In this document: positions 4,391 to 14,930 of the stretch, piece after piece
How positions within the stretch are numbered: the first letter of the stretch is position 1
Layout: each line of letters opens with the position of its first letter
DNA from: a virus
Lineage: Duplodnaviria; Caudoviricetes
Strand: one strand, 5' to 3'
Length of the DNA stretch: 64,000 bases
IMG/VR virus record: IMGVR_UViG_3300014205_000182
Coordinates: 1 to 64,000 of that record
Notes under the pieces: model-generated
What the model saw: the letters and a program-made list of their open reading frames with translations, nothing else
What the model was told of the DNA's origin: nothing
Database searches by the model: none
Program-made: the position numbers and the translations under genes

Positions 4391-4467
4391 GCGACCATAG
4401 CTCAACGGTTAGAGCACTCAGACTAATGACCTGGGGGATAAGGGTTCGAATCCCTTTGGACGCGCTA
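4391..4467 (+). ncRNA. tRNA-like RNA with a 9-nt anticodon loop (AAT if read as a 7-nt loop)
   Basis: D arm GCTC-AACGGTTA-GAGC; T arm AAGGG-TTCGAAT-CCCTT; CTCAG/CTGGG stem around ACTAATGAC. Confidence 0.65.
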
Positions 4468-4546
4468 AGGATCTCTAGCTCAACGGTAGAGCGTGTCGCA
4501 GTGAAATGTGGCAAGGTTGTAGGTTCGAATCCTCCGAGATCCTCTA
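4468..4546 (+). ncRNA. tRNA-like RNA with a 7-bp anticodon stem and 6-nt loop
   Basis: Acceptor AGGATCTC/GAGATCCT; canonical D and T loops; TGTCGCA-GTGAAA-TGTGGCA. Confidence 0.65.
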
Positions 4547-6835: not shown

Positions 6836-7231
6836 ATGACTACCTGGTACCGATATAACGACGTCGCCTACTCTACAGGGTACGACGAGTATCGCGACTG
6901 TAGTTCCGGTACTCGAATTGAAGTCGAACTTACAGAGTACGAAGTCCTTCGTTACACCCCGAAGGGTGCGTGGATCAACGCTAGCCCGTATCGCAGCGCT
7001 ACATCCTTTAAGCACATGAAAGATGAGAAGTTCGTACTGCTATCGGCACGTAAACGCTTCGCCCATCCAACCAAGGAGGAGGCGATGACGTCGTTCATCG
7101 CTCGCAAGAAGGCTCAGATTAGGATTTACAAAGCTCGGGTCAAACATGCCGAGGAAGCGCTAAAGCGAGCCGAGGAACTTACTCATGCTTCCCACGCTCA
7201 TAGTCACGCCAACGCCAGCGTCGACCTGTAA
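6836..7231 (+). CDS. Hypothetical phage protein
   Basis: ..TPKGAWI..KRFAHPTKEEAMTSFIARK..; start chosen at MTTWYRY. Confidence 0.6.
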   Translation: MTTWYRYNDVAYSTGYDEYRDCSSGTRIEVELTEYEVLRYTPKGAWINASPYRSATSFKHMKDEKFVLLSARKRFAHPTKEEAMTSFIARKKAQIRIYKARVKHAEEALKRAEELTHASHAHSHANASVDL

Positions 7232-7842
7232 GGTGACATGTCACACGATCCTCCGGGACGTCGATACTTCGTACCTTATCTCCGCGTTGACCCGACCCTA
7301 CTTGCTGCCGTCGCTGTGAGTCTCGCTCTTGCCCGAGGGTGGCGTTCCGCGCTTCGACGATCCTTGCTCGGAGCACGGCCATCGCCGTCTCCTTGTTCAG
7401 GGCTTGCGACCGCTCGGATTCACAGCGAACGACGACGCCGGTCGGTAGGTGCGTGATGCGAACCGCCGAGTCGGTCACGTTGCGATGCTGACCGCCAGCA
7501 CCGCTACCACGCATCGTTTCGATTTCTAGATCCTGATCCAGGATCTTAAGCTCGTGCTCACGGGGTTCTGGGAGCACTGCCACCGTAATCGTGCTCGTAT
7601 GCACGCGCCCCTTGCGATCTGTAGGGCTAATCATCTGCCAGCGGTGTCCACCGGCCTCGTGCTCGAAGACTTTGTCTACACCCTTGCCGTTCACACGGAG
7701 AATGATGTAGCCGTCTCGATGCTCGACTACTTCGAGGTCAAAGACCCCTCTTGTTGCAAACCTTTACGTAGATCGACAACTGCTGCTCAACGATGTAATC
7801 ACTATGCTTACCGCCCTCGGCGGATCGGATTTCTATAATCAT
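7179..7842 (-). CDS. Short class-I peptide chain release factor (about 220 aa) translated via a programmed +1 frameshift at 7737-7743
   Basis: ORF1 MIIEIRSAEGG...KRGL* ends AAGAGG-GGT-CTT-TGA-C; the +1 frame continues to HRWQMISPTDRKGRVHTS and GSGAGGQHRNVTDSAVR. Confidence 0.88.
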
Positions 7843-7846
7843 GACG

Positions 7847-7936
7847 CGGATAGTTGAGGAATCGAACCCCTCCCCAGCATTTAGCCAGGGCGAACTCCTT
7901 AGCAGGGAGCCTCTGTGCCTTACAGATTAACTATCC
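7847..7936 (-). tRNA. tRNA-Ser(GCT)
   Basis: Cloverleaf, loop CTGCTAA, long variable arm. Confidence 0.85.
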
Positions 7937-7938
7937 AT

Positions 7939-8024
7939 TGGCGGCAGGAATAGGAGTCGAACCCGGCCCCGAAGGGCACCTAGTTTTCAAGACTAGTAGG
8001 TCGCCAACCGACCTCTTTCCTGCC
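7939..8024 (-). tRNA. tRNA-Ser(TGA), atypical Sec-like fold
   Basis: 8-bp acceptor, 6-bp D stem, loop CTTGAAA, variable arm, GCCA end. Confidence 0.75.
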
Positions 8025-8274
8025 AGAATAGCAGCGCTCAACTCGTCTACGACGAGGAGCGCGAACTAGAACTGTGTGAGGATAGAGTGTACATAAAATG
8101 ATCCGGGGTTTAACGAGGGTGCCGGTACCTCGCAGCCATCGTGGGATGACCTCGTGGGCCAGGCCCACTATCTATATAGCGATGATGCTGATGTTTGTCA
8201 AGGAGCCCGGCGTTGAAAAGTCCGTACGAAAATTCCAACTCCCGGTAGGCATCGCAAGCGAGGCCGGGCATAAG

Positions 8275-8346
8275 TAGAGTATGAGGGAATCGAACCCTCA
8301 TTAATTGCTTGAAAGGCAACCGTCCTAGCCGTTGAACGAATACTCC
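8275..8346 (-). tRNA. tRNA-Glu(TTC)
   Basis: GTTGC-CTTTCAA-GCAAT. Confidence 0.85.
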
Positions 8347-8347
8347 A

Positions 8348-8421
8348 TGGTGGGGAGGGCTGGGAATGAACCAGCAAACACGGCCTTTTGCAGCCGCCGC
8401 TTTCTATTAGCGTACCTCCCC
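8348..8421 (-). ncRNA. tRNA-like RNA with a 6-nt anticodon loop
   Basis: Acceptor GGGGAGG/CCTCCCC-ACCA; CGGCT-GCAAAA-GGCCG. Confidence 0.6.
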
Positions 8422-8590
8422 GTAAAATGACCGGCCACGAACGAGCCCTGACCGGTTCTGTTAAGTGCCTAACACCACGACCGGTGCTTCGGGCCAAATC
8501 TCCTAGCAGGTTCGTTGCTAACCAATCCGTGTCCGTGATCAGCGGGCGTTATTGGACGTGGCTTGTTCTAATGGTTAAAGCCACGGGATC

Positions 8591-8661
8591 TAGTACCTCC
8601 AGCTGGTATCGCGCCAGCTTTCCGACGTTCGAAGCGTCGGGCTCGATCTTTCGTTGGAGGC
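8591..8661 (-). tRNA. tRNA-Arg(TCG), reduced D arm
   Basis: CGACG-CTTCGAA-CGTCG; acceptor GCCTCCA/TGGAGGT. Confidence 0.7.
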
Positions 8662-8666
8662 ATATC

Positions 8667-8736
8667 AGTGCAATCTAGCGGAATCGAACCGCTCCGTCAG
8701 ATTTAGGAAATCCAAGTCCTGTCCATAGGAGAGTGC
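8667..8736 (-). tRNA. tRNA-Arg(CCT), reduced D arm
   Basis: TGGAT-TTCCTAA-ATCTG; TTCGATT T loop. Confidence 0.75.
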
Positions 8737-8867
8737 ATATCCCTTACCTATCACCGATTCGTCCTAGCCTCGTTTAGCGGCGAGTATGGGGAAGGCTGCG
8801 TGCGCACGCTTTACCTACGAACAAGCTTCAGGGTCCCGTCTAAATCCCACTAGGGCGCGTGGGCGGT

Positions 8868-8938
8868 TGGCGTATCACCCAGGAATTGCACCTGGCACTG
8901 TCCGATTAGAAGTCAAACGTCTGTCTATCAGGTGATAC
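8868..8938 (-). tRNA. tRNA-Arg(TCT), reduced D arm
   Basis: TTTGA-CTTCTAA-TCGGA; GCCA end. Confidence 0.75.
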
Positions 8939-9014
8939 ATAGTCGTCGTGCGTTGTACCAGATTCCCGCCGTAGGGCCGTTAGGTACTTCCCTGTATCGA
9001 CGAACGCACGACGT

Positions 9015-9088
9015 TGGAGCACTCTGTCGGATTTGCACCGACGATCAACGGGTTGCAGCCGTTTGCCTTTCTACTTGGCCAAGAGTGC
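9015..9088 (-). tRNA. tRNA-Cys(GCA)
   Basis: AACGG-CTGCAAC-CCGTT; U73 followed by CCA. Confidence 0.9.
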
Positions 9089-9207
9089 AGAAACTAATGA
9101 GGGCGTTCCACCGTCATCGCCGGGTTTGCCGTCTTACGATCAAGACGTAGAGTGTCGCCATTGCGGGCAGGTAGCCACCGGACTACGAACGCGTATACAC
9201 GTTCCAG

Positions 9208-9298
9208 AGTGTAAGGCGGGAGTCGAACCCACAAAGACCCGAGCCCCGTTATCTCACGACAACTCACTCAGTATGTCTGCCAATTGCATCACTTACAT
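9208..9298 (-). ncRNA. tRNA-like RNA with the anticodon arm replaced by a long GNRA-capped hairpin
   Basis: Canonical D/T loops; CTGAGT-GA-GTTGTC-GTGA-GATAAC-GGG-GCTCGG. Confidence 0.65.
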
Positions 9299-9301
9299 TC
9301 G

Positions 9302-9375
9302 TTCGGGGTGAAGGTTACGATCCCTCGTCTCTCGCTTCAAAGGCGAGCGTCTTAGCCCATTAGACAGAACCCCGA
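9302..9375 (-). tRNA. tRNA-Gln(TTG)
   Basis: CTCGC-CTTTGAA-GCGAG; U1:A72. Confidence 0.85.
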
Positions 9376-9449
9376 ATGGCGCCTTGTTCCGACTTGCCAC
9401 GGCTCGCCACCATTGCTGGCCACGGGTCCCCTGGGCTAGGACCGGCGCG

Positions 9450-9521
9450 TAGTGCTCCCACTCGGAATCGAACCGAGCCTCCACCCATACCAAGGGTAGG
9501 TACTCACCAGACGTCAAGAGC
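9450..9521 (-). tRNA. tRNA-Thr(GGT)
   Basis: TACCC-TTGGTAT-GGGTG. Confidence 0.8.
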
Positions 9522-9593
9522 ATGGTGATCACACACGCGCTGGTTAAGCATCGATCACCTGGGAACCACCCTATGATCCTGCGTGTGCTTTCG

Positions 9594-9661
9594 TGGAGTA
9601 TGACGGTAGCGCGCCGTCTCTAAACCGGTGCAAGCGGTTTGCTCAGTCTTCTGTATACCCC
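9594..9661 (-). tRNA. tRNA-Ala(TGC), degenerate D/T loops
   Basis: AACCG-CTTGCAC-CGGTT; G3:U70. Confidence 0.75.
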
Positions 9662-9670
9662 AAAGTGTCG

Positions 9671-9743
9671 TGGAACTGGTCGGGTTCGAACCGACTGCCT
9701 CTTCGATGCCATCGAAGCGCTCTCCCAAGTGAGCTACAATCCC
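9671..9743 (-). tRNA. tRNA-Ala(GGC)
   Basis: CTTCG-ATGGCAT-CGAAG; G3:U70. Confidence 0.9.
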
Positions 9744-9771
9744 ATGTTGACCTTCCATCAACTGGCAGGAG

Positions 9772-9954
9772 TCACACCTGCTTTTGACTCTCGTTTACAC
9801 GAGACCCTACTGATCTTGCTGCTTCCTCCGAGAAGGAAGGTACCCCGTCGAGAGAGCGATTCATCGCTCCCATCCGAGTCTTATACCACTTGAAGAACTC
9901 CTTTGCACAGAAGGTGCAGTCAGGATGACAAGCGCCGAGAGCATTAACCACCAT
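9772..9954 (-). CDS. Small hypothetical protein inside the tRNA array
   Basis: AGGAG/GAGGT RBS; CxxxCxxC; 60 aa. Confidence 0.55.
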   Translation of the reverse strand: MVVNALGACHPDCTFCAKEFFKWYKTRMGAMNRSLDGVPSFSEEAARSVGSRVNESQKQV

Positions 9955-9972
9955 ACCTCACTCCTATTGTTG

Positions 9973-10044
9973 CGGAATTGACGGGAATCGAACCCGCCTC
10001 GGTGTGTAGACAGCACACCAGCCTCACCAGATGCTTACAACTCC
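9973..10044 (-). tRNA. tRNA-Asp(GTC)
   Basis: GTGTG-CTGTCTA-CACAC; G73. Confidence 0.88.
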
Positions 10045-10122
10045 ATGGGTGGGAGCACGTCGGCTTTGCGGCCTACGGTTTGCCTATATCTCTTCACGGA
10101 GAAGCTCCAAAATCTCAGGTTA

Positions 10123-10196
10123 TCCTGATACGCCCGCCCGGGGCTTTACATCGCTAGGCGGTACGCGTTTCACCCTTCCGGGATCATCAGTCAGGA
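10123..10196 (-). ncRNA. Type I hammerhead ribozyme
   Basis: TCCTGA-CTGATGA-TCCC-GGAA-GGGT-GAAA-CGC...GCG-TA-TCAGGA; GUA cleavage triplet. Confidence 0.8.
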
Positions 10197-10197
10197 A

Positions 10198-10524
10198 CTA
10201 TGGGTTCAGCTTGCAGAGGCCGTATCGGCAGCGCTCACCAGAATCACAGTCATCATCACAATCACAGCGTTCGTAGCACTTACCGCTATGACATCTCTCT
10301 CCGTCATCACAATCATCGTCGCAAGTACAAGGAGGAGGCACGTATGCATCAGGTGGACAGACTTCGGCATCTGGTTGTAGGACTGGTGCATCTGTTGCTC
10401 CGGCGTCGGGTCTCTCATACTCACCACCGGGTGGTGTACTTGTTGGCGGGACATCGGTATCATAATCACGTTCTAGGTTAGCGCAACCCACTAACGCACA
10501 GAGAAGGAAGATTGTGTAACGCAT
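10198..10524 (-). CDS. Cys/Asp-rich lipoprotein with CxxDDDC repeats
   Basis: Lipobox LVGC; two CxCDDDCxxGERCxxGxC repeats. Confidence 0.75.
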   Translation of the reverse strand: MRYTIFLLCALVGCANLERDYDTDVPPTSTPPGGEYERPDAGATDAPVLQPDAEVCPPDAYVPPPCTCDDDCDDGERCHSGKCYERCDCDDDCDSGERCRYGLCKLNP

Positions 10525-11207
10525 TAGAACCTCACCGATCCAAACAGACTTGCCGAGCTACCGAGGGTCCACTGCGCACCCTCTTCCGAGTCGTCGTGCA
10601 GCATCCCGAGAACGAGTGGGGCCAGATTCAGATGGAACATCACCGGGCCAAGCTTCTGTCGAACGCCGATGGTGGCGTCGAGCGTAACGTAGCTGCCGTC
10701 AATCTCGCCGTTCTCTGGCGAGCCGTTGATGTTTAGAAGGCCGAGACCGACACCGAAGGTGGCATGGTCGAGCTTCCTAGCAACTCCAAGTCGAGCCGTG
10801 AAACCAGATTCTCGGTCGCTGGTAGCGCCCATTGCTAGACCGCCCATCAGCGATGCCTCGTAGTTCTTGGAAACCATTCCGCGAACCTGAAGCGCTGGGC
10901 CCCATGCCCAGTCACCGTGCTTACCCATATATGTTCCGAAGACACCGAGATCGAGTGGGAACTTACCTGCACCACGCTCGACTACTCTGGTTTCCCGGAT
11001 AACTTTTCCGTCCTTACCGGGCGGACCTTCAGGCCCACGTGGTCCCGGTTCACCCGGAGTCCCACGAAGGACTTTGCAATACGATGTCGCAGGAGTTCGC
11101 TTCTTCTTTTTGACCTTAGGCTTCGGGGCTTCAGGACAAGGTGTTGCGTCGGCTGCTGCGGTGCCAGCAAACGCTGCGATTAGAGCAATGGTTAGTGTTT
11201 TATTCAT
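10524..11207 (-). CDS. Secreted protein with a short collagen segment and a beta-barrel-like C-terminus
   Basis: Signal peptide, (Gxx)6 stretch, alternating hydrophobic strands, C-terminal Phe. Confidence 0.65.
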   Translation of the reverse strand: MNKTLTIALIAAFAGTAAADATPCPEAPKPKVKKKKRTPATSYCKVLRGTPGEPGPRGPEGPPGKDGKVIRETRVVERGAGKFPLDLGVFGTYMGKHGDWAWGPALQVRGMVSKNYEASLMGGLAMGATSDRESGFTARLGVARKLDHATFGVGLGLLNINGSPENGEIDGSYVTLDATIGVRQKLGPVMFHLNLAPLVLGMLHDDSEEGAQWTLGSSASLFGSVRF

Positions 11208-11227
11208 CCACCAGAAAACTGGTGAAG

Positions 11228-11761
11228 CTAGTCGTCCGACTCCAGAGAACCGTTCCAGTACACATAATCATGCCACTGCTCTGGGATCGTCTTTCCAGTG
11301 AATTCAAACTCTACCTTCGGGACTGATCTGGGACGCACCGGCTTGCTAAGCAGTTTCATCTTAGCCTGCTGGGGCGTTCTGCCACCCTTCTTGCTGTTAC
11401 AGTCGTAGCAACAAGAGACGATGTTCTCCCAGACCGTCGTTCCGCCCTGAGAGCGTGGGATGACGTGGTCGTACGTAAGCTCGTCTGTACGGCACTTTTC
11501 CCCACAGTACTGGCACTTGTACCCGTCGCGTGAATAGACGTTTACGCGAGAGAACTTGAGCGCCTTCACTGGCTTCTTGACGAAGCTGTTCAGACGAACA
11601 ACGGCAGGTACTCGCATCGTTAAGTATGCGGAACGAGCCAGTGTGTCGTACTCTTCAACAACCGTCATCTTAGAGTTGTGAATTCCCGTTACAGCCACAT
11701 CCCACGGGACGACGCCGAGCGGTTCGTAACTAGCGTTAAGGACGAGTGTAACGTGATTCAT
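11228..11761 (-). CDS. HNH endonuclease (McrA-like)
   Basis: LVLNASYEPL; RDGYKCQYCG; DHVIPRSQGG; WENIVSCCYDCNSKKG. Confidence 0.92.
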   Translation of the reverse strand: MNHVTLVLNASYEPLGVVPWDVAVTGIHNSKMTVVEEYDTLARSAYLTMRVPAVVRLNSFVKKPVKALKFSRVNVYSRDGYKCQYCGEKCRTDELTYDHVIPRSQGGTTVWENIVSCCYDCNSKKGGRTPQQAKMKLLSKPVRPRSVPKVEFEFTGKTIPEQWHDYVYWNGSLESDD

Positions 11762-11799
11762 GGTAACTCCAAGCTAAGCACTATTCGAAGATAAGTCAA

Positions 11800-11875
11800 T
11801 GGGGTGTCTGACGGGTTACGCTCCCGCCTTGCTGGAATCACAACCCAGCGCCTTCACTAGACGGCAACAGACACC
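11800..11875 (-). tRNA. tRNA-His(GTG)
   Basis: G-1:C73; CTGGG-TTGTGAT-TCCAG. Confidence 0.88.
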
Positions 11876-11939
11876 ATATTCTTCTGTGGCCACTCAGAAC
11901 GAGTGGTAGTCACTACCTGCGTGTGGGTAGCTCACATCG

Positions 11940-12011
11940 TAGACCGTGAAGGACTTGCACCCTCGTGACTCGCTAATAAGGCAAGCGTACTGGCTGCTGT
12001 ACGAACGGTCC
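11940..12011 (-). tRNA. tRNA-Ile(TAT), atypical
   Basis: CTTGC-CTTATTA-GCGAG; T at position 37. Confidence 0.6.
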
Positions 12012-12013
12012 AT

Positions 12014-12088
12014 TAGTCTCCCATTCCGGTTCCGACCCGGATTCGATCGCTTATCGGGCGATTGCACTAGCCACTGTGCTAATGAGAG
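12014..12088 (-). tRNA. tRNA-Ile(GAT)
   Basis: ATCGC-CCGATAA-GCGAT (C33). Confidence 0.75.
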
Positions 12089-12089
12089 A

Positions 12090-12165
12090 TGGTAGGGAGT
12101 AAGAGGATCGCACTCTTCGCATACTGCATGTAAAACAGTCATCACCACTAGGTGGCCTACTCCCC
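12090..12165 (-). tRNA. tRNA-Val(TAC)
   Basis: ACTGT-TTTACAT-GCAGT; ACCA end. Confidence 0.82.
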
Positions 12166-12171
12166 ATATCG

Positions 12172-12244
12172 TACTGGTACTCGGACTCGCACCGAGACTA
12201 ATTAGTTCCTAAGACTAACGCCTCTACTTTTGGGCTATACCAGC
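12172..12244 (-). tRNA. tRNA-Leu(TAG), no long variable arm
   Basis: TTAGT-CTTAGGA-ACTAA. Confidence 0.8.
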
Positions 12245-12248
12245 AAAC

Positions 12249-12324
12249 TAGTACTCCAGGTCGGATTTGCACCGACACTTCGCGGGATTTAAAGCCGCTG
12301 CCTCTGCTGTTGGGCTACTGGAGC
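12249..12324 (-). tRNA. tRNA-Leu(TAA), no long variable arm
   Basis: GCGGC-TTTAAAT-CCCGC. Confidence 0.75.
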
Positions 12325-12325
12325 A

Positions 12326-12399
12326 TGGTATGTGTCCGAGGATTCGAACCTCGATCGCCAGGTATCACCCCGGAGTTTTACCAGTTAAACTAGACACAC
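12326..12399 (-). ncRNA. tRNA-like RNA with a 6-nt anticodon loop (GTGATA)
   Basis: Canonical body with ACCA end; CCGGG-GTGATA-CCTGG. Confidence 0.65.
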
Positions 12400-12494
12400 C
12401 AACGACTATCGAAGTGCCTTCACGTATTAGCGGTACGCTTAGGTCTCTGTGATGGTCGCCGGATTCCATCGTGCCGCTAAGCTTGATGGTTTCG

Positions 12495-12563
12495 TCGCAA
12501 CGGGTGGAGTCGAACCACCGTCGTACGCCTTATGAGAGCGTCGAGCATCCTATGCTCGCTGCG
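12495..12563 (-). tRNA. tRNA-Met(CAT), reduced D arm
   Basis: ACGCT-CTCATAA-GGCGT. Confidence 0.78.
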
Positions 12564-12630
12564 ATGTGTGACTGCCAGGTATCCAGCCTGGAAGGGAGGT
12601 AGGGGCTCTTGCGATCCACACTCAGTCACT

Positions 12631-12700
12631 TGGCAGGCAGCCCCGGTATCGCGCCGGGCTAATCGGTTTTGGAATCCAATGTGATCCTTGATCGCCGCCT
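12631..12700 (-). tRNA. tRNA-Trp(CCA), reduced D arm
   Basis: Loop TTCCAAA; acceptor AGGCGGC/GCTGCCT-GCCA. Confidence 0.75.
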
Positions 12701-12784
12701 ATGGTGGACATCTATACTTGAACGGGAGGCCCTCCCCGGAGTAAATCGGCTCAAGTTGCCTAGAAGCGTTGACCGCCTCGCTCG

Positions 12785-12852
12785 TACGCCCACCAGGAGT
12801 TGAACCTGGTCACCAACCTTCGCAGAGTCGGGTCGAATCCCTTCGTGGGCGC
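12785..12852 (-). tRNA. tRNA-Arg(GCG)
   Basis: CGACT-CTGCGAA-GGTTG. Confidence 0.75.
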
Positions 12853-12856
12853 ATAA

Positions 12857-12927
12857 TGGCGCCAGGCTGAGGAATTATACCTCACCGCTCCCTCTTAAAT
12901 GGAGAGTGCTCGTCAGAGCTACCCGGC
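12857..12927 (-). tRNA. Degenerate tRNA (TTT, Lys-like)
   Basis: CTCTC-CATTTAA-GAGGG with A33; GCCA end. Confidence 0.5.
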
Positions 12928-12934
12928 AAAAAGT

Positions 12935-13007
12935 TACGGAGACTGTTCGTAAACGGTGTTTGTGTCCAATTTTAAGTTAGAAGTAACCGTTCACTATCAC
13001 TGCCGTA
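12935..13007 (-). ncRNA. Y-RNA-like stem-loop
   Basis: TACGG/CCGTA closing stem; CAGTGATAGTGAACGGTTACTTC...CCGTTTACGA; resemblance judged from memory only. Confidence 0.45.
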
Positions 13008-13010
13008 TCG

Positions 13011-13082
13011 TAGTCTCCACGGGTTTTGCGCCCGTCTTCTCCGCGTGAGAGGCGGATGTCCACACTAGCTGACTCGGAGACC
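13011..13082 (-). tRNA. tRNA-Glu(CTC)
   Basis: TCCGC-CTCTCAC-GCGGA. Confidence 0.78.
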
Positions 13083-13146
13083 ATGTTTGCCTGAGGGAAG
13101 ATCGGTAACCCTCTTATCCCGCTCGTGTAACTCCGCAGGTCGGTCG

Positions 13147-13217
13147 TGCATCCAGAAGGAATCGAACCTTCTTATGGGACAAGTCAAATCCCTAACTCAC
13201 CATTTGTTCTTGGATGC
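13147..13217 (-). tRNA. tRNA-Val(GAC)
   Basis: GGGAT-TTGACTT-GTCCC. Confidence 0.72.
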
Positions 13218-13220
13218 ATT

Positions 13221-13307
13221 TAGAGTACCCCGCAGGTAACGATCCTGCCTAGGACTTTCGTCCCCAGGTTAACAGCCTGGCGCGCTCTCCATGAGTGCTA
13301 GAGGTAC
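13221..13307 (-). tRNA. tRNA-Asn(GTT) with a long variable arm
   Basis: CCAGG-CTGTTAA-CCTGG; extra GGAC-GAAA-GTCC arm. Confidence 0.75.
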
Positions 13308-13313
13308 ATTCAG

Positions 13314-13382
13314 TGCTCCCACCAGGAATCGAACCTGGCTGACTCGCATTACAAGTGCGTGTCGATACCCAGAACTAAGAGC
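13314..13382 (-). tRNA. tRNA-Thr(TGT)
   Basis: CGCA-CTTGTAA-TGCG. Confidence 0.78.
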
Positions 13383-13383
13383 A

Positions 13384-13453
13384 TGGTGCCCACTCGCGGA
13401 ATCGAACCGCGTTGCTTCCCTTACGAAAGGATGCTGTTTCCAAAACAGCGGGC
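13384..13453 (-). tRNA. tRNA-Thr(CGT)
   Basis: TCCT-TTCGTAA-GGGA; ACCA end. Confidence 0.75.
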
Positions 13454-13619
13454 ATTCTGGCGTTTTACGTTGGTGCGCCACACGGTAGATTGATCCTCTA
13501 TTCGGGAGTTCTAGAATTCCCTAAAGACGGTCGACTACTACGAGTCACCACGAAAAGTCGTGGCCACAAACTGTCCTGAGTAGTTTCGCCCTCCCTGGGC
13601 TACCGCATTCAAGACATCG

Positions 13620-13692
13620 AGCGGGTCAGGGGAATCGAACCCCTCTAAACAAGTTTGGAAAACTTGTGACTTCCCAGATGACCTAGACCCGC
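13620..13692 (-). tRNA. tRNA-Gly(TCC)
   Basis: CAAGT-TTTCCAA-ACTTG; U73. Confidence 0.88.
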
Positions 13693-13693
13693 A

Positions 13694-13727
13694 TGGCGCC
13701 CCGCCCCAGGATCAACCGGAGCAGAGC
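13694..13727 (-). ncRNA. 12-bp tRNA minihelix ending in GCCA
   Basis: GCTCTGCTCCGG-TTGATC-CTGGGGCGGGGC-GCCA. Confidence 0.5.
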
Positions 13728-13734
13728 ATAATCG

Positions 13735-13803
13735 AGCGGGCGACCGGTAACGATCCGGCTTCCATAAGAGTGGCACTCTCGTGGGCTTCCTAAACGCACC
13801 CGC
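13735..13803 (-). tRNA. tRNA-Gly(GCC)
   Basis: GAGA-GTGCCAC-TCTT; U73. Confidence 0.75.
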
Positions 13804-13922
13804 AGTTTCTGGATCGCTTCGTCTATCGGGCATCATCACATCCGGTTGCCCGGTGCGGCCTCGCGTCATGCCTCAGCATTTACACTATGCGTCCATAGTG
13901 CTGGCCAACCAGATGGCCGTAG

Positions 13923-13995
13923 TCGAGCTTGTGGGAATCGAACCCACCAAAGTCCTGGTCCCAAACCAGGCGTCACACCTTGCAACTTAAGCTCG
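13923..13995 (-). tRNA. tRNA-Pro(TGG)
   Basis: CCTGG-TTTGGGA-CCAGG; C1:G72. Confidence 0.88.
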
Positions 13996-14080
13996 ATAGT
14001 CACGTAAGTTTTACAACCCCGAAGGGCAGCTGAGTAGATCGCGAGTCCTCCAAAGCCTAGTCTTCACTTATCACTTACGC

Positions 14081-14154
14081 TAGTGGAACTCCTGGGAATC
14101 GAACCCAGCCCTCATGGCTTAAAAGGCCAGTGAGCCACCTTGGCCCAGAGATCC
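14081..14154 (-). tRNA. tRNA-Lys(TTT)
   Basis: TGGC-CTTTTAA-GCCA. Confidence 0.85.
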
Positions 14155-14194
14155 ATTGGCGCCTTTTTACATGATTGCCCAGCATGTTCGTCGG

Positions 14195-14265
14195 TGGATC
14201 TCCTGAGAGTCGAACTCAGGCAAGCCGGGTAAGAACCGGATGGACTACCGTAATCCTTGAGATCC
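14195..14265 (-). tRNA. tRNA-Lys(CTT)
   Basis: CCGG-TTCTTAC-CCGG. Confidence 0.82.
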
Positions 14266-14269
14266 AAAC

Positions 14270-14343
14270 GAGAGTTGTGCTCCTGTTACACTAGCCAGCA
14301 GCTGTTAGGCCCCTGGTGCGGATTCGCACCGCTCTACTCTCTC
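14270..14343 (-). ncRNA. Circularly permuted tRNA-like RNA (T arm 5' of D arm)
   Basis: GAGAGT..GCGG-TGCGAAT-CCGC-ACCAG..CTGGC-TA-GTGTAACAGGAGCAC-A-ACTCTC. Confidence 0.65.
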
Positions 14344-14345
14344 AG

Positions 14346-14418
14346 TGCCTCTCCTCGGTTTCGCGCCGAGTTCTCAGTGGCTTCAGCACCGCGCTTTTAC
14401 TAAATTAGCTTGAGGGGC
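14346..14418 (-). tRNA. tRNA-Phe(GAA)
   Basis: CGGTG-CTGAAGC-CACTG. Confidence 0.82.
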
Positions 14419-14425
14419 ATATTCG

Positions 14426-14498
14426 TTCGGGACCCAGGATTCGAACCTGGAACCTACTGCTTCAGAAACAGCTGCACAGCCAATTGTGCTAGTCCCGA
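14426..14498 (-). tRNA. tRNA-Gln(CTG)
   Basis: GCTGT-TTCTGAA-GCAGT. Confidence 0.88.
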
Positions 14499-14538
14499 AT
14501 ATCGTGACCCCACAGGCGGGTCACATTTGCATCATCAC

Positions 14539-14560
14539 TATTCGATTGTAAAGGAACGAG
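14539..14560 (-). promoter_or_regulatory. boxA-like antitermination element
   Basis: CTCGTTCCTTTACAATCGAATA resembles rRNA-operon boxA and lies just after the first tRNA. Confidence 0.5.
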
Positions 14561-14563
14561 CGG

Positions 14564-14645
14564 TGGGAGTCGTGAGAGTCGAACTCACAATGGTTGGTAC
14601 AACTGCTTTACAGGCAGCCCCAGTGACCGTACTGGCAATACTCCC
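14564..14645 (-). tRNA. tRNA-Tyr(GTA), first tRNA of the array
   Basis: GCTGC-CTGTAAA-GCAGT; extended variable region. Confidence 0.85.
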
Positions 14646-14683
14646 AGAAATAGAAAAGCCCAGCTGGTTTCCCGGCTGAGCCC
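14646..14683 (-). terminator. Intrinsic terminator of the tRNA-array attenuator
   Basis: GGGCTCAGCCGG-GAAA-CCAGCTGGGCTT followed by TTCTATTTCT; its 5' arm overlaps the antiterminator strand at 14679-14689. Confidence 0.8.
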
Positions 14684-14707
14684 TAATCTGGTTCTATCTG
14701 AAGATAG

Positions 14708-14830
14708 TTAGATTAGGGCCTCCACGGGAAAGATCGCATTGGCCTGGCGGTAGTCATGACCCGGCACGCACCACAGCCCGACGCTGTAAATGCGTCCCTG
14801 TAGTTTTTCTGTGGTCGTTGGCCGGGTCAT
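14708..14830 (-). CDS. 40-aa attenuator leader peptide
   Basis: MTRPTTTEKLQGRIYSVGLWCVPGHDYRQANAIFPVEALI*; all 20 amino acids; the last codons form the antiterminator strand. Confidence 0.75.
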   Translation of the reverse strand: MTRPTTTEKLQGRIYSVGLWCVPGHDYRQANAIFPVEALI

Positions 14831-14839
14831 TGTATTCTC

Positions 14840-14868
14840 TTTATAACTCTTCTTGGTTAGCTTGTCAA
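14840..14868 (-). promoter_or_regulatory. sigma70 promoter of the tRNA/RF operon
   Basis: TTGACA-17 nt-TATAAA; a second TTGACA-16-TATAGT lies at about 14907-14934. Confidence 0.75.
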
Positions 14869-14930
14869 GTGGCAGGTTCAAGGTTTGTCGTTTCCGTCTC
14901 TCAAGCACTATAACCATCCACGGGGCGCTG

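Follow-up and report, generated by a model that had tools for sequence, protein, structure and literature searches.

A 230-nucleotide (nt) element at the head of a large transfer RNA (tRNA) array in a phage genome encodes a short leader peptide containing all 20 amino acids, and on balance it is probably a ribosome-dependent transcription attenuator of that array. The element lies in IMG/VR virus record IMGVR_UViG_3300014205_000182 (Caudoviricetes; 143.7 kb, estimated completeness 90%), of which the first 64 kb, positions 1 to 64,000, was analyzed and is referred to below as the window. A first-pass annotation of the window had proposed that a leader open reading frame (ORF) with every amino acid gates the tRNA genes behind it through a choice between two RNA hairpins. 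The strongest evidence for this proposal comes from a family of related loci, in which the leader reading frame, its amino acid coverage and both alternative hairpins are preserved.

Every part of the element is on the minus strand. Its promoter, P2 (TTGACA-17-TATAAA, 14840–14868; −35 box at 14868–14863, −10 box at 14845–14840), is followed after 9 nt by the ATG at 14830, giving a transcript that would be leaderless or carry a very short 5′ leader. The ORF (14708–14830) has 40 sense codons and a TAA stop (14710–14708) and uses 20 different amino acids and 32 different codons. The promoter, the complete coverage and the codon count are thus as first annotated. The first 75 nt of the ORF (codons 1–25) fold into a long hairpin, H1 (14756–14830), with the start codon in its basal stem. 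Toward the end of the frame, a GGAGG motif (14719–14723) lies 5 nt ahead of the last sense codon, and strand C (14710–14720) spans the four final codons and the initial base of the stop. Strand C is the 5′ arm of a second hairpin, H2, which encloses a 5-bp inner stem-loop with a UUCA loop (14694–14707) that pairs in all 11 sequences; strand D (14679–14689) is its 3′ arm. The proposed pairing of the last codons and stop with strand D was borne out, with 14720–14710 opposite 14689–14679 in 11 base pairs (bp), one of them G·U, and the stop codon at the end of the arm. Strand D is also shared with the terminator that had been placed just before tRNA-Tyr, as it overlaps the 5′ arm of that hairpin and can alternatively extend its stem. 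This terminator, H3 (14658–14681), is a 10-bp imperfect stem (5′ arm 14681–14672, 3′ arm 14667–14658) capped by a GAAA loop (14671–14668), and its U-rich tract (14646–14657) abuts the start of tRNA-Tyr at 14645. The fold of the 196-nt stretch is much more stable than those of shuffled sequences (z = −5.0).

Eleven complete homologous loci (L004, L006, L007, L008, L028, L037, L047–L050 and L059) and a truncated one (L035) were collected by several routes. An NCBI metagenome contig, L004, was reached through portal homologues (its portal is 81% identical), and L006, L007 and L008 through homologues of the adjacent HD-domain protein. Scanning metagenome contigs for the H2–H3 motif gave L028, L035 and L037 (three true loci among 36 matches), and a later motif scan of IMG/VR gave L059 (one among 34). 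Among 1.84 billion proteins, a hidden Markov model (HMM) built from seven peptides matched 18 short ones (35–48 residues) and nothing else credible; four were traced to their contigs, L047–L050. Searches of viral contigs through the neighboring small proteins, the sigma factor and the portal found no relatives, an exact 21-mer of H1 used as a query had no match, and the first RNA-motif scan of viral contigs gave just false matches in coding DNA.

All loci share one order: promoter, ORF, H2 with the stop codon, GAAA-loop terminator, U-tract and the first tRNA of an array. That tRNA was called as Tyr by ARAGORN at 10 of the 11 homologous loci; there was no call in L049, where Tyr was assigned by eye. 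The terminator has a stem of 10–15 bp and a U-rich tract ending 0–1 nt ahead of the first tRNA, a gap too short for any promoter. At the 5′ end, seven aligned homologues share the CTTG-C core of the −35 box without change, and the spacers vary. The −10 box lies 6–19 nt from the ATG, with only 6–10 nt in 8 of the 12 complete loci (window counted) and 14–19 nt in the rest. A consensus promoter scan omits P2, which lacks the T that the scan requires as the sixth base of the −10 box. In L028 and L049 the element is directly preceded by other tRNAs, and so can sit within a tRNA region with its own promoter. At every locus, the stop codon follows strand C directly or by at most two codons. Between the window and L004, a neighboring protein gene is about 45% identical and the leader nearly identical, which argues for strong constraint on the leader. 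As a separate observation, the base 3′ of the leader stop codon at 11 loci is C in seven, G in three, A in one and U in none; C, G or A following a stop codon are weak termination contexts, which would lengthen the dwell of a ribosome at the end of the ORF.

Comparison among these loci shows conservation of the reading frame, which none of the 11 complete homologues (36–42 codons) interrupts. The spacing between its anchors (the ATG, a TGGTGCG block and GGAGG) differs by multiples of three only, despite the varied lengths. The remaining five frames of the same DNA mostly contain stops and encode 10–18 kinds of amino acid. Within the window genome, complete coverage is rare: its frequency is 0.19% among stop-free 40-codon windows and 0.5% among random peptides of genome composition, and one of 770 ATG-initiated ORFs of 20–40 codons shows it, besides a second all-20 ORF of 45 codons. 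Since the feature was chosen after being seen, such single-genome rarity is not decisive, and the question is decided by the family.

With 15 further peptides fetched beyond the loci, we obtained 21 non-redundant leader peptides of 35–41 residues, 30–60% identical to that of the window. Fifteen are complete for the 20 amino acids; of the others, five lack one and one lacks two. In the subset found independently of the peptide sequence, six of seven are complete (window, L006, L007, L028, L037 and L059), and L008 has 18. Random peptides of the family composition would give 0.11 complete members of 21, and permuting residues column by column in the alignment yields 1.25 (at most 7 in 20,000 runs). 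Nucleotide shuffles that keep the base pairs and composition of each sequence are complete in 0.3% of cases, and neutral drift from a complete ancestor to 39–51% identity, with conserved positions fixed, leaves 2–4% complete. His, Phe, Ser, Tyr, Asp and Lys usually occur once per member, in columns that differ among members. The column shuffle is the most informative of the four controls, as its low yield means that rare residues relocate rather than vanish; between the window and L004, for example, an Ile-to-Asn change at codon 14 is accompanied by Asn-to-Thr at codon 31. Collectively, these comparative data show that all-20 coverage in the leader family is maintained by selection.

The same family preserves the RNA structures. 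H1 has a folding energy of −39.4 kcal/mol in the window (z = −5.3), and a hairpin of the same topology occurs in all 11 homologues tested (z from −1.2 to −5.3). Several peptide motifs coincide with helix arms: the KR.ER motif corresponds to the GCGC/GCGC hairpin at the apex of H1, the two arms of H1 correspond to the Thr-rich start and the WCV motif, and strand C of H2 corresponds to the P.EAL(V/I) tail. Much of the apparent conservation of the peptide is thus conservation of the RNA. In L047 and L050, the Ala codon of the tail is changed to Gly with a compensating base change in strand D. The outer stem of H2, its inner stem and H3 pair in every sequence, with the letters of the inner stem and of H3 unrelated among loci, and 8 of the 13 consensus pairs show compensatory changes in RNAalifold. 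The first-pass expectation that relatives of diverged sequence would retain both coverage and hairpin pairing has thus held.

Two partners compete for strand D, namely strand C and the H3 3′ arm together with the adjoining U-tract; the two helices share 4–11 positions in each of the 12 sequences. Strand C and the 3′ side of the terminator resemble each other and change together, as in L047 and L050, and comparison of the loci shows co-variation of both alternative helices. With H2 fully formed, H3 retains only 6–8 bp, and unpaired bases separate it from the U-tract. With strand C removed, H3 lengthens to 10–15 bp and reaches the U-tract. H1 folds on its own, leaving strand C out, so the element lacks a competing hairpin of the trp 1:2 type. 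Within the ORF, four of the five bases of GGAGG, among them the wobble G of the preceding codon, are invariant over 12 sequences, and 11 of the 12 keep the A. GGAGG could hold a terminating ribosome by anti-Shine–Dalgarno pairing; in several folds it pairs with the U-tract instead and closes a three-way junction.

The effect of ribosome position was modeled by folding the transcript to the end of H3 with a 28-nt ribosome footprint kept single-stranded, as equilibrium models. When the stop codon occupies the A site, 10 of 11 sequences have the full terminator as their minimum-energy fold, the outcome foreseen when masking of the ORF end was first suggested. A ribosome placed at codon 14 abolishes the terminator in five (window, L007, L008, L028 and L050), shortens its base in four (L006, L037, L048 and L049) and leaves it unchanged in two (L004 and L047). 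The predicted polarity, in which a ribosome at the stop codon favors the terminator and an upstream stall favors the antiterminator, is therefore reproduced in 9 of 11 folds and fails in L004 and L047. Scanning the A site along the ORF, terminator-base pairs appear only within about seven codons of its end. The original wording that a stall anywhere upstream would suffice accordingly applies to most of the ORF and needs amending for the last seven or so codons, where a stalled ribosome acts like one at the stop codon. Within these models, the design is compatible with the proposed polarity.

We infer from these features that the ORF is translated and that termination occurs at the U-tract, and we derive from them a polarity for the switch and a physiological trigger. 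Transcription would start from P2 a few bases ahead of the AUG, producing a leaderless or nearly leaderless message, and a ribosome would load on the free 5′ end before H1 closes over the start codon. As H1 would close about 70 nt later, translation may be restricted to the ribosome loaded during transcription. If this ribosome translates the 40 codons in step with the polymerase, it would cover strand C as the terminator is made. Strand D would then be free for the terminator 3′ arm and the U-tract, the full hairpin would form, and transcription would stop 1–12 nt before tRNA-Tyr. If the ribosome is absent, or stalled in the first 30 or so codons (which hold 19–20 amino acids), strands C and D would pair to form H2, the terminator would lose its base or be replaced, and the polymerase would enter the tRNA genes. 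A shortage of any charged tRNA, or a general failure of translation, would thus increase tRNA synthesis in a feedback loop on tRNA supply. Because H1 and H2 do not compete, read-through is the predicted outcome for an untranslated leader, so failed initiation would be sensed as well as failed elongation.

The trigger is held less firmly than the attenuator itself. In the fullest form of the proposal, the "pangram" leader is a universal sensor of charged tRNA, in which an anticodon nuclease, starvation or a scarcity of free ribosomes stalls or prevents the pioneer ribosome and turns on the tRNA set of the phage; we advance this tentatively, with doubt slightly outweighing belief. A single codon per amino acid implies low gain for mild starvation and the best response to near-total loss of a tRNA. 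Such a response fits a nuclease trigger without demonstrating one, and the anticodon nuclease named in the first-pass annotation is a speculation; the codons of the leader are not tuned to the tRNAs of the phage.

A number of results weigh against the attenuator reading or narrow it. H1 could not be recovered as a column-conserved helix, as RNAalifold fails on the sequence alignment; only its architecture and per-sequence stability are kept. No Shine–Dalgarno sequence precedes the leader or is conserved among the loci, and the AUG lies in or beside a stable hairpin. A look at 106 long ORFs of the phage gave little Shine–Dalgarno enrichment, although this survey was crude and its start sites uncertain. 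Two of the modeled loci, L004 and L047, show no switch with a ribosome at codon 14. Each amino acid occurs just once or twice per leader, whereas classical attenuators owe their sensitivity to runs of regulatory codons. The peptides derived from the HMM search may also lean mildly toward consensus-like, and hence complete, members.

Codon content tells in the same direction. The count of 32 different codons, originally offered as a signal, equals the expectation from the peptide and codon usage (31.7 ± 1.9; P = 0.53 for the window and 0.81 pooled), and codon diversity in the leaders is no higher than expected. Leader codons are likewise not enriched for matches to array anticodons (140 observed, 137.5 expected). 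With codon number and anticodon matching both unremarkable, selection appears to act on kinds of amino acid and not on isoacceptors. A further difficulty concerns Leu: 12 of 21 members have their sole Leu codon in the tail, a position from which a stalled ribosome cannot release strand C. Selection for 20 amino acids anywhere in the ORF therefore maps imperfectly onto the sensing window. In these phages, either Leu is not sensed or the sensing rule differs somewhat from the proposal.

The positions of Leu tRNA genes may bear on this difficulty. Clusters of two or three genes, some with a Met tRNA gene, lie upstream of the leader in the window (17243–17393, minus strand), L004 (14174–14546), L006 (1329–1569), L007 (2793–2944), L028 (2309–2612) and L059 (815–1042). 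A separate Leu cluster upstream of the leader is outside its control. In the window and L008, the array includes Leu tRNAs and the leader has early Leu codons; in L006, L007, L028 and L059, the Leu tRNAs are in the separate upstream cluster and Leu occurs only in the leader tail. This pattern rests on six non-independent loci, too few to lean on, and L049 is a possible exception.

Of the other explanations, the closest is a ribosome-dependent switch with a different output. Leader translation might determine how the tRNA precursor is processed or how stable it is, with H2 as a nuclease site; alternatively, the short terminated RNA could be the functional product, or a fully translated leader could favor read-through, the opposite polarity. 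Conservation of both the ORF and the structures suits such a switch, as do the nearly invariant GGAGG, the folds of L004 and L047 without a terminator switch, and the sequence conservation of the H2 outer stem beyond its pairing, which suggests contact with a protein or the ribosome. We nevertheless consider it improbable, as H2 has no U-tract of its own, the shared strand and the terminator 3′ side mimicking strand C have the geometry of an antiterminator and terminator, and masking by a ribosome at the stop codon yields the full terminator at all modeled loci save one. An ordinary small protein gene, with its own promoter, a peptide functional in itself and a leaky terminator that happens to precede the array, would also explain a conserved ORF, and gene callers annotate it in several metagenomes. 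Outside the RNA-constrained motifs, however, the peptides share little (mean column identity 42%), and the conserved motifs are helix arms, with the Ala-to-Gly change of the tail compensated in strand D. A folded or binding peptide would leave unexplained why rare residues relocate while all 20 are kept, and the peptide has no Pfam family and no known relatives. This explanation is still less probable than a switch with another output.

The converse possibility is that the open frame is incidental to a noncoding structured leader or small RNA, such as a pre-tRNA 5′ leader or processing signal. The strong fold (z = −5), the conservation of H1, H2 and H3, the missing Shine–Dalgarno sequence, the paired AUG and the many peptide motifs explained by helices would all be expected of such an RNA. 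What makes it very improbable is the frame: every homologue keeps it open, with lengths that differ by multiples of three, and the other five frames carry stops and 10–18 kinds of amino acid; structure-preserving shuffles are complete in only 0.3% of cases, and Rfam has no match. Finally, a random short ORF with all 20 amino acids could lie beside an ordinary terminator, and about one such ORF is expected among the several hundred short ORFs of the genome, in keeping with the one in 770 found and the second of 45 codons. Chance is refuted by the family data, in which complete coverage recurs among relatives sharing only 30–60% of residues, and we give it almost no credence.

An attenuator of the tRNA array, the reading we prefer, places the element beside the trpL, hisL, pheL, thrL, ilvL and leuL attenuators of enteric bacteria, and it has their structural hallmarks except a hairpin of the 1:2 type. 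Both have a promoter, a short leader ORF, an intrinsic terminator, a strand shared between antiterminator and terminator, and a stop codon placed such that a finishing ribosome blocks the antiterminator. The distance from stop codon to termination point is about 60 nt in the phage element and about 70 nt in the trp leader. Unlike the enteric leaders, the phage leader carries one or two copies of every amino acid instead of a run of one or few, has a leaderless or very short 5′ end with no Shine–Dalgarno sequence, belongs to a phage and precedes tRNA genes rather than genes for enzymes. In contrast to trp, H1 does not compete with the antiterminator, and an untranslated leader is predicted to read through rather than to undergo super-attenuation.

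Leader-peptide attenuators that sense antibiotics include those of vmlR-type ABCF genes. The mef/mel(msrD) resistance genes are described as having an attenuator of this kind (PMC4335068). In these systems, as proposed for the phage, a ribosome stalled on a short upstream ORF blocks the terminator, and a translation defect turns on genes that repair it. Their stall is drug-dependent and occurs at a specific peptide motif, whereas the phage leader has no evident arrest motif and is selected for complete coverage. T-box riboswitches likewise respond to tRNA charging and control translation-apparatus genes through antitermination, but they bind uncharged tRNA directly, without a ribosome, through a specifier loop and T-box sequence, whereas the phage element has a conserved ORF. 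A T-box identity was rejected, as Rfam gave no T-box match and only tRNA matches in 7000–18500. Large tRNA arrays occur in lytic phages such as T4, T5 and the cluster C mycobacteriophages, together with small RNAs and homing-endonuclease genes; the proposed leader-peptide control is what sets the present array apart, and we know of no such control in phage tRNA clusters. A full-text literature search found no description of such an element. To our knowledge, the whole-alphabet regulatory content, the tRNA-gene target and the phage owner are new.

If the proposal is correct, this would be the first attenuator known for tRNA genes and the first with the whole amino acid alphabet as its regulatory content, extending leader-peptide attenuation from sensing single amino acids to a general sensor. 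It would also be a rare example of selection on the residue set of a peptide and not on residue order. For the purpose and timing of tRNA arrays in large phages, the current answers are matching of codon usage and escape from host defenses that cleave tRNA. A conserved switch before the array would make tRNA expression conditional on the state of translation, and a 230-nt element makes the question of array use testable. As a compact reporter of the supply of any charged tRNA, it may find use in cell-free and synthetic-biology work.

In the window, ARAGORN finds 30 tRNA genes, 26 of them in the minus-strand array that runs from tRNA-Tyr (anticodon GTA; 14562–14645), its first gene, down to 7846. 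Rfam adds one further tRNA-like gene within the array (8351–8421, minus strand), for a total of about 27, and the array tRNAs serve at least 18 amino acids. The view that the leader gates the whole array may apply to this main array from 14645 onward, which might also have internal promoters; it does not extend to the two Leu tRNAs at 17243–17393 (minus strand) or to two tRNA-like genes at 4391–4544. No Phe or Trp tRNA was found by ARAGORN in the array of this phage; its relatives carry both. Tested against the tRNA model of Rfam, the tRNA-like genes at 12326–12399 and 8351–8421 (both minus strand) match, and the one at 4469–4544 (plus strand), beyond the Rfam-scanned region, is an ARAGORN call only; all three were missed by ARAGORN or assigned abnormal anticodon loops. 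Beyond the window and far from the array, ARAGORN places a tRNA with anticodon TTA at 106830–106903 (plus strand), a candidate ochre suppressor. The array is interrupted at 10524–11761 (minus strand) by a gene for an HNH endonuclease and an ORF that weakly matches collagen repeats, and HNH genes also flank the arrays of L007 and L008. A search for cultured relatives of the phage found none, with a best portal identity of at most 30%, and a permissive Rfam scan of 7000–18500 for known RNA families returned only tRNA matches in the leader region.

Upstream of P2, the consensus scan places a second promoter-like site, P1 (TTGACA-16-TATAGT, 14907–14934, minus strand), which is stronger than P2 (11 of 12 matches) and overlaps the stop of a 90-codon ORF (15203–14931). 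Of the homologues, L004 keeps both P1 hexamers and L008 keeps the −10 box, with diverged spacers. P1 and P2 may be tandem promoters serving different times or different sigma factors. A GACGGAAACGA block (14888–14898, minus strand) lies downstream of P1 and is kept in L004 too. An 80-codon version of the leader ORF starting from TTG at 14950 was rejected, as in L004 this frame is closed by a stop four codons ahead of the ATG and is displaced farther upstream by an indel. Two genes are oriented divergently to the leader, for a sigma-70 family protein (15692–16168, plus strand), with regions 2 and 4 and the size of an extracytoplasmic function (ECF) sigma factor, and for an HD_4 domain protein of the guanosine penta- and tetraphosphate ((p)ppGpp) hydrolase type (16178–16693, plus strand). 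Conservation of the HD protein beside tRNA arrays is widespread among related contigs.

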